Part shown: piece by piece, positions 40,258 through 41,554 of the stretch
Layout of the letters: each line of letters starts with the position of its first letter
Position numbering within the stretch: the first letter of the stretch is position 1
Assembly: GCA_965223545.1 (NCBI GenBank)
Contig: OZ245006.1
Span: 4,384,001-4,448,000 of the forward strand
DNA: 64,000 nt
Source of the DNA: Planctomycetota bacterium
Lineage (GTDB): Bacteria > Planctomycetota > UBA1135 > UBA2386
Direction of reading: 5' to 3'
Notes under the pieces: model-generated
What the model saw: only the letters and a program-made list of their open reading frames with translations
Database searches by the model: none
Told to the model about the DNA's origin: nothing
Made by a program: the position numbers and the translations under genes

Positions 40258-41146
40258 ATGGCTGGGCCTTTCGCCACAGAAGCACTCCTCTGGCCTCTGA
40301 ACGAGGTCGAGCGCAAGTACGCGCCTGAGGAGCTTTTTTGTGCTGGCGACACGTTGCTCCTGGCCACCCCGTGCGTCTCTGTGGTCGGCTCGAGGAAGGC
40401 GAGTGCTGAAGGACTTGCTCGAGCGGGACGTTTCGCGCGCCTCCTTGCCGAGCGGGGTGTCACGGTCGTCAGCGGTCTCGCGGATGGCATCGATACGGCG
40501 GCTCACCGAGGTGCCATCGATCACCGCGGTCGAACGATCGCTGTTCTCGGCACGCCTCTCGAGAAGTGCTATCCGGCGAAGAACCGCGGGCTCCAGAACC
40601 TCAGCGCGGCCGGGGCCGCAACCAAACACGGAGCATTCCGCGACCCGAGCGTCGGTCGAGGGTCCCGCGGTCGCCGGCGGCCCGCGCTGAGCCCAGAGGC
40701 CAGTGTTGTCTTCGAGCCTCAGGGAGCTGCGTTGTCGAAGTTCTAGCGGCATCGAGCCTTCCGAGAGGTTGTCGCCGCGCGAAGATTTGCGGACCCTGAG
40801 GCTCATCATGCGAGAGCATCTGGCGATCTCGCAGTTCGCTTCGGGGACCAAGACCGGCCGGCACAGCTTTCCGATTCGAAATCGTGCCATGGCACTGATT
40901 TCCGACGCCACGGTGATTATCGAAGCGGCGGACAACAGCGGGTCGCTGCATCAGGGGTGGGAGGCATTGCGCCTCGGGCGGCAGCTGTTCATCGCGAAAT
41001 CGCTCTTCGACAACCAGGACCTCGAGTTCCCGCACAAGTTCGAAGGTTTCGGTGCTGAGGTTCTCGAGGATGAGGAGTCGGTGGACCTACTCTGCGCCGA
41101 GCTCCCACGGAGTCGCCGTGAACACTCCGCCGAAGTGCCTTTCTGA
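40258..41146 (+). pseudogene. dprA: DprA/Smf-like protein interrupted by a 202-bp insertion
   Basis: 5' half VVGSRKAS...VSGLADGIDTAAH...AVLGT...YPAKNRGLQ; 3' half RLIMREHLAISQF...FPIRNR...EAADNSGSL. Deleting 40598-40799 restores one 228-aa ORF. Confidence 0.9.
40598..40799. mobile_element. 202-bp ORF-less structured insertion (MITE- or intron-like)
   Basis: Precisely interrupts dprA; GA repeated at both junctions (40596-97, 40798-99); sub-terminal 9/10 inverted repeat GGGGCCGCAA (40612-21) / TTGCGGACCC (40787-96); several internal hairpins. Confidence 0.8.
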
Positions 41147-41554
41147 AGTTCGCTTCGCGGCCATCCTCGCCTACTCGACTCTGGCAGACCCAGGAACAGA
41201 GATCTCACGCCAGTCCCAGCTCGTCCGTGATGCCATCAAAAGTAGCCGGGCGAACTATCTGGATCGCTTTGGCGAACGCGCAGCGGAGGCGCATGGCACA
41301 ATCGGGGAGCGAACGGGCCAAGAGGATCCGGAAGAGCGCGTTCCGTCGTCGGGGGCAGGACCGACGACGTCGTGACGCGTGGAGCGCAGCTCGTCGGTGC
41401 CGCGTCGCTGGTTGCCTCGGCGTTCCCCGCGGCCGAGGTTCGGGCACTCGCCGCACTGCGAGCGGTGAGTGGCGAAGAGGTCGCTTCGATCTTCGAACCC
41501 GTTGTCGGCACGATCACGAACGGCGGAAACAACCAGGTGTGGCGCCGGCCCTGA
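41118..41554 (+). pseudogene. Fragmented phosphoribosyltransferase (DprA partner)
   Basis: Three frames: LSEVRFAAILAYS...VRDAIK; ERAKRIRKSAF; DDVVTRGA (PRPP-binding motif)...VWRRP-stop. Overlaps the dprA end. Confidence 0.75.

Follow-up and report, generated by a model that had tools for sequence, protein, structure and literature searches.

Within the stretch of planctomycete DNA analysed here (64,000 nt, G000:C1:4384001-4448000, hereafter the window), a DprA-family gene is split by a non-coding insert of 202 nt. Both flanking halves match Pfam PF02481 (the 5' half over model positions 17-119, the 3' half over 123-210), and excision of the protein-less insert restores a 228-aa frame collinear with homologues, as the first-pass annotation of this DNA had proposed. 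The features of the locus are as follows.

40258..40600, forward strand: 5' half of the DprA paralogue, short, with ShosA as its best PADLOC match; its final base is the C of the CTCA target
40601..40802, forward strand: the element, 202 nt, left-half type L1 and right-half type R1
40600..40603, forward strand: left CTCA, made up of the target C and the element's own TCA; judging by other families, the crossover would be C^TCA
40601..40626, forward strand: conserved left-end module TCA-GC-GCGGC-N4-GCCGC-AACCAAA, common to several phyla
40606..40610 with 40615..40619, forward strand: short left hairpin within the left-end module
40622..40623, forward strand: insertion site of an 11-copy IS110-family element in other copies, unoccupied here
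40682..40691, forward strand: internal segment that pairs with the left end to give the long left hairpin, found only in some families
40714..40724, forward strand: 5' arm of the long right hairpin, whose partner, 40794-40804, is mostly the element's own right end
40715..40716, forward strand: AG core, insertion site of a 4-copy IS1111-type element in other copies, unoccupied here
40772..40785, forward strand: subterminal right-end hairpin TCGC-CGC-GCGA with a conserved CGAAGA arm, 17 nt before the junction
40802..40805, forward strand: right CTCA, made up of the element's last C and the target TCA
40803..41146, forward strand: 3' half of the DprA/ShosA-like gene
41121..41375, forward strand: first part of the partner gene, which in homologue L444 is PRTase-like

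The limits of the unit were set from the ends of its other copies and from contigs of four public runs, which have loose ends before 40600 and behind 40805; together these place it at 40601-40802 (or 40600-40801) in a single CTCA core. Two of the public runs contain a joint from 40801 to 40600 at which four letters are common to both sides, as expected of either a tandem junction or a circle. An empty dprA allele was not found among the contigs of the four runs, which is not evidence of its absence. The junctions drawn in the first-pass annotation were thus 2-3 bases off, and the GA repeat reported at both of them is incidental once the ends sit in the CTCA core. With the ends corrected, the empty site would read L-Q-N-L-I-M and not, as had been claimed, L-Q-R-L-I-M; homologues read LQ-x-x-IM, and the proteins alone are compatible with either join.

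The interrupted gene is a short DprA paralogue with ShosA as its best match (E 3e-36); the same genome has another DprA-family match, a more distant one, at C1:1456461. Intact short-DprA homologues were observed in about ten related genomes. The downstream PRTase-like partner gene diverges from L444 after about 40-50 residues, and on sequence the two-gene unit of dprA and its partner looks decayed. Because the partner gene also seems truncated, the defence pair struck by the insertion was probably dispensable or decaying: on this view the copy in the window would have disrupted an anti-phage-type dprA paralogue that the cell could already do without, and would not be spliced out.

The insert is one of many. 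A DNA search of the genome with it gave 81 matches and a profile search 229 hits in 162 loci, many of them tandem (one hit falls in the window), while pairing of end motifs yielded 127 candidate units, or 125 complete copies after two false ones were dropped. No ORF is present in the unit. The earlier proposal of a non-autonomous mobile element of an uncharacterised family was right. The copy in the window is 96.6% identical to its nearest genomic relatives and, at 202 nt, one base over the usual 201. CTCA stands at the start of 119/125 copies and at the end of 117/125, counts that are biased upward by search motifs which held CTCA with mismatches allowed; the flanks beyond it carry at most 0.33 bits per position, i.e. 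are random. The element lands in CTCA without duplicating its target. The second contig, G000:C2 (39.6 kb), has no copy; by eye it resembles a phage, with terminase-, portal-, capsid- and tape-measure-like frames. Two further regularities were seen in G000, a net length divisible by three (195, 198 or 201) in 98 of the 125 copies and minus-strand open frames in 110-121 of them, and neither is a rule in G018 or G282.

Copies are mosaic, three left types being combined with three right types in eight of the possible ways. Neighbours within arrays are under 90% identical in 22/40 cases and at least 97% identical in 10/40, which suggests that arrays grow mainly by insertion of unlike copies and partly by local duplication. 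Two copies (L069 and L509) hold a duplicated upstream flank inside the element, suggesting template switching during copying. Coding frames are avoided: by a rough heuristic, 3 of 61 arrays (4 including the window) lie in them, as against 169/300 random CTCA sites. The core TCA serves as the stop codon of an opposite-strand gene in 22/61 cases, compared with 120/3000 sites, a placement that purifying selection alone could explain. There was no replichore bias (75/162 loci, p=0.39).

The two complementarities that had been reported with exact positions are present, and their interpretation changes with the corrected ends. The 10/10 stem between 40600-40609 and 40682-40691 exists as described, and this long left hairpin retains at least 9/10 pairs in 122/125 copies. 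The 11-nt complementarity between 40714-40724 and 40794-40804 is likewise there, but the guide role given to it is not borne out, as it is the element's own terminal stem, with GAGCCTCAGGG as the 5' arm. The partner segment CCCTGAGGCTC, said to include host dprA sequence, is mostly element sequence, and 24/125 copies end in it. One position of this right stem co-varies (100 C-G and 12 G-C against 11 mismatches with the same two letters), in counts drawn from related copies that are not independent. The match of CCAGAGGC to the empty target arises only under the misplaced junction: CCAGAGGC is present in 34/125 copies, of which the window copy alone has CCAGA in its left flank. The insert had also been said to fold extensively, and it does so only modestly better than shuffles (RNA z -2.06, other strand -0.59; DNA z -1.82 and -1.23).

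These segments had led to the suggestion of an RNA-guided or self-splicing element with its own-target segments, e.g. a non-autonomous IS110 derivative. IS110-family recombinases are indeed abundant in G000 (38 matches), and some families have, within the element, a segment complementary to the left 4-mer. However, the interiors of 44 solo copies with 44 different targets matched their own flanks, over a 16-nt target, no better than shuffled ones (9.86/16 vs 10.02 ± 0.10, p=0.95, n=44). The middle segment exists in just 8 variants among these 44 copies, i.e. the same interior recurs whatever the flanks, the very outcome named beforehand as speaking against a guide. Rfam gave no real match in the window region (two chance hits only) or at 7 related loci, and the copies avoid coding sequence, which disfavours splicing, since a self-splicing element has no need to avoid genes. 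The IS110 elements examined have ends of their own; the element is a target into which they insert, and they also occur outside full copies of it. We regard the RNA-guided or self-splicing reading as largely refuted, and very improbable as an account of this insert.

In this genome IS110-family elements are parasites of the repeat. The 11-copy IS110-family element sits at GCCGCAAC^CAAA in 11/11 cases (one of them outside any copy) and the 4-copy IS1111-type element at a TTCGAG site in 4/4 cases; IS insertion into REP repeats is known (PMC1525189, in part). The former (G000:C1:6422208-6424148 and 10 other loci) carries an ORF of 500 aa and, on its left, 380 nt of non-coding DNA with segments GGCCGCAA, GCCGCAA and TTTGG, candidate bridge-RNA guides for the repeat's left end. 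One copy of the repeat (G000:C1:537276-537480) has a few extra bases at the IS110 site, like the remnant of a lost IS110 copy. At L597 in G380, positions 111-1617 of the element are an 11-copy IS1111-type insert lying in a GTCAT hairpin of the repeat body, and insertions of this type were found in 4 copies, in both orientations. A look for longer relatives with a DEDD recombinase had been suggested; the long versions in G380 turned out to be such separate IS110 insertions with their own ends.

Outside G000, the element is recognised by a left end of about 25 nt, C^NYA-GCGCGGC-N3/4-GCCGC-AACCAAA. This pattern was found in 6/91 genomes of the host's family and 20/401 sampled from the phylum, as well as at 88 metagenome loci and 28 genome loci (one of the 28 from G345), the latter carrying the titles Planctomycetota, Acidobacteria, Anaeromyxobacter and Verrucomicrobia. 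A looser pattern was present in 14/14 re-searched genomes (13 without G345), all selected for already having the motif, with reversed controls giving 0-3. Upstream bases that the pattern did not constrain follow C-N-Y-A (C in 98/111, A in 98/111). Viral contigs gave no match to the strict pattern and two to the looser one, and a plasmid collection gave four short chance matches only. 

The right end consists of a hairpin, then 17 nt, then the target in 112/125 G000 copies. In other genomes, 259 left ends supplied 325 candidate hairpins, for which an offset of 17 scores 85, compared with 8-25 elsewhere except for 52 at offset 12; in G380 and some G348 copies the spacing is 20 nt. On 25 hand-picked rows (24 of 80 listed candidates plus the window) this hairpin is 74.5% paired, as against 62.4 ± 1.8 when shuffled and 33-46% when slid, and in 6/8 pairs both partners vary, a covariation that supports the stem. 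In some rows, the window's among them, the stem is in a different register, and RNAalifold returned no consensus structure on the 25-row alignment. The internal complement of the left 4-mer (TGAG/CTCA, TGCG/CGCA) is exact in 13/42; it holds in G000 and in some G339, G341 and G350 copies and is absent or mismatched in G018, G282, G342 and G349, and was rejected as a general core guide.

The bodies between the two ends are unrelated, and often contain hairpins with CACAGAG-type arms, which we take to be linked to GxxExxY genes, or other repeat types. The element could be a by-product of hairpin systems of the GxxExxY-nuclease or Ssn type, with arms that it frequently includes or inserts into: many relatives carry, or sit in, CACAGAG/CACGGAG-type arms, and one PDDEXK_3 gene adjoins a copy (L209). 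Yet PDDEXK_3 (PF13366) was found in 0/5 genomes (G000, G018, G280, G282 and G277), GIY-YIG gave one hit each in G000, G018 and G282, in long frames of 621-770 aa, and the G000 copies lack arms of this type, which makes such an origin highly unlikely.

As the first bases of the element vary between families (TCAG, ACAG, GCAG, ATAG), so does the target. Copies starting with TCAG have a TCAG target in G018 (29/30 per position), G282 (11/12) and G341 (5/6), those starting with ACAG an ACRGAG target in G342 (6/6), those starting with GCAG an RCRGAG target in G350 (loosely; 11 rows, one spurious) and those starting with ATAG an ATA target in G380 (36 rows). Where start and target differ, the absence of a duplication can be seen directly: the left side reads CGCA and the right RCRGAG in G350, the left CACA and the right ACRGAG in G342, and in G341 and G280 a left CTCA is paired with an element end GTAGTAGA. 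Repeat periods in the flanks, judged by eye, suggest that the C left of the element is target-derived, and a G282 copy in a Y2 transposase gene becomes collinear with an intact homologue once one core is removed. A weaker form of the guide idea therefore survives, in that the element of each family begins with a copy of the 3' half of its family-wide target; since the target changes with these bases, the system may be re-targetable. A classical, DDE-mobilised MITE was considered and rejected: the ends are not inverted copies of each other, and the junction 4-mers differ within several families.

We conclude that this is a real element, one member of a widespread family that seems not to have been described before, although its general kind is known. 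Starting from what can be observed directly (copy number, ends, target, lack of duplication, end hairpins, mosaic bodies and tandem arrays), we suggest, with a probability of roughly 0.55, that it is a DNA transposon without genes of its own, mobilised in trans by an HUH-type transposase that acts on single strands, and that its two ends differ from each other as those of the IS91 family do. The enzyme would bind both end hairpins on single-stranded DNA, nick immediately interior to the left C and, at the other end, 17 nt beyond the right hairpin, make a circle or rolling-circle copy and join this copy into C^NCA(G) sites resembling the element's own start. Template switching during copying might give rise to the swapped halves and captured hairpins, and since each insertion would recreate the target site at both ends, new copies could stack onto old ones.

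This reading is favoured because the layout matches that of the IS91 family and, in part, group-3 REPs. IS91 has its own tetranucleotide and a palindrome at one end, a palindrome followed by the target tetranucleotide at the other, and makes no duplication (PMC13181058, in part). Like IS91, IS801, IS1294 and mini-IS91, the element has unlike ends with subterminal palindromes, a target-like start tetranucleotide and the target after its other end, again without duplication. It differs from them in having no tnpA, in being about 200 nt long with swappable bodies, and in its target, which is C^NCA(G), not CTTG/GTTC, with a C needed on the far side of the cut; furthermore, no intact Y2 gene was found in G000.

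Several other systems share part of this layout. Non-autonomous IS200/IS605 elements (PATEs) have in common with it hairpin ends, a tetranucleotide target and no duplication, but the element splits its target, and by eye no guide tetranucleotide fits the IS608 rule. Unlike the element, IS200/IS605 show a replichore (lagging-strand) orientation bias (PMC6006769, in part). With IS110/IS1111 bridge- or seek-RNA elements it shares a short core at both junctions and a joint fitting circles or tandem units, and it differs from them in having neither a recombinase nor a flank-tracking segment. Eukaryotic non-autonomous Helitrons start with TC at the 5' end, have a hairpin at constant spacing upstream of the 3' end, make no duplication and contain captured internal sequence; the resemblance is one of layout, as the element is bacterial and no Rep-helicase partner was found for it.

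The search for an enzyme acting in trans yielded no partner. No transposase family was found among 150/161 neighbouring ORFs (69/88 metagenome loci), 1779 frames at 156 loci contained one real HUH gene, and no partner enzyme was found at 40 G380 loci. G000 has just two Y1 HUH types, and neither tracks the element. One type, with 12 copies, was not found in G018, G346, G348 or G349 and is present in G011, G022, G023 and G028, all without the left-end pattern; the other was looked for without success in G280 and G282, and 8/11 genomes of the family have it, most of them element-free. Three Y2 hits in G000 are partial or stop-interrupted, the Y2 loci of G000, G018, G280 and G282 have no ends of the element's type, and the sole Y2 overlap is an element inserted into a Y2 gene. 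As several of the searched genomes are incomplete, these misses carry little weight.

Some of the HUH genes encountered have repeats of their own. The 12-copy mobile Y1 gene of G000:C1 (12 loci, e.g. L035 1207-2100) encodes about 230 aa, falls below RAYT and IS200 cut-offs, and has modular hairpin repeats upstream that are joined at CTCAGC; this mobile unit ends at the stop codon, with no downstream hairpin seen, and its relatives are multicopy in G022, G028, G280 and G282. In G349 (L292, G349:C18), a 343-aa frame with two tandem Y1 domains is flanked by arrays of roughly 60-nt repeats with GTAG. Pairs of an integrase and a Y2 transposase at L238, L239 and L243 are followed by a common GCCGC...GCGGC hairpin, with a GTTCAAC end in two.

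Alternatively, the element may be a REP/BIME-type repeat processed by a domesticated RAYT or TIRYT, its left end being a REP-like hairpin with a CNYA tag in place of GTAG. That left end has the group-3 REP layout of a tetranucleotide, 2 nt and a 5-bp perfect hairpin, and its C^T or C^A junctions recall REP transposases, which cut at C^T, one also at CA, beside 5-bp hairpins (PMC8266576, in part). High copy number, intergenic sites and tandem mosaics are common to the element and to REP/BIME/REPIN systems with RAYT (TnpA-REP) (PMC3116915 and PMC1525189, both in part), and arrays, intergenic sites and IS110 targeting are REP traits (PMC1525189, in part). Moreover, one G018 copy lies 3 nt before the start codon of that genome's only Y1 HUH gene, which could be chance, and a G349 copy lies about 420 bp from a Y1 gene; the adjacency is one-sided and was seen in G018 and G349, with none in G000. 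However, the G018 gene has inverted repeats of its own, its G000 homologues have no element copy nearby, and its close homologues were not found in G280 or G282. The element has no GTAG or CGTC tag, its C-N-Y-A tag varies by family with a target-derived first base, and its ends are not two inverted REPs. No RAYT gene flanked by the element was found, and a single end module spans four phyla. On this evidence we consider a REP origin unlikely.

Another enzyme class or a host process, such as replicative template switching or a reverse transcriptase copying structured RNA, could also be the mover, with the ends as recognition sites. All searches for a co-occurring known partner failed, two copies hold the duplicated upstream flanks described above, and a reverse-transcriptase-like element is present in G000 in 13 copies, its ends being of group II intron type and its family presumably that of the group II introns. 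On the other hand, most copies of the repeat have precise ends, no pattern of 5' truncation was seen, and we think this explanation quite improbable. The 13-copy element itself, with its group II intron-like 3' end, was seen repeatedly at one site in the Y1 HUH-linked repeats, upstream of several copies of the HUH gene (G000:C1, e.g. near 1355541).

HUH-type transposition in trans is our preferred reading. It is possible, though we hold it to be rather doubtful, that the family forms a cross-phylum 'end-only' superfamily, akin to non-autonomous Helitrons, in which an almost invariant left end of 25 nt and a spaced right hairpin would be read by an unrecognised class of transposase, the element's own first bases would set the target and the ends would take up and transport hairpins from other selfish systems. 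A literature search, mainly of open-access main texts, found no description of the element, which supplement catalogues (e.g. PMC3733652, PMC6006769, PMC3372372) could contain; in a motif-based search, none of the matches listed dealt with bacterial repeats.

Guides to its own insertion site, the main attraction of the insert at first sight, are without support. If the reading proposed here is true, a small element whose hosts are mostly uncultured bacteria from at least four phyla moves without a recognisable partner beside it, and this partner-less movement would point to an unassigned transposase activity, for the discovery of which the element would provide two short, defined end substrates. 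IS110-family elements also land at fixed sites in the repeat (two of them in G000, with a third case in G380), and the repeat would thereby offer natural target sets for work on bridge RNAs.
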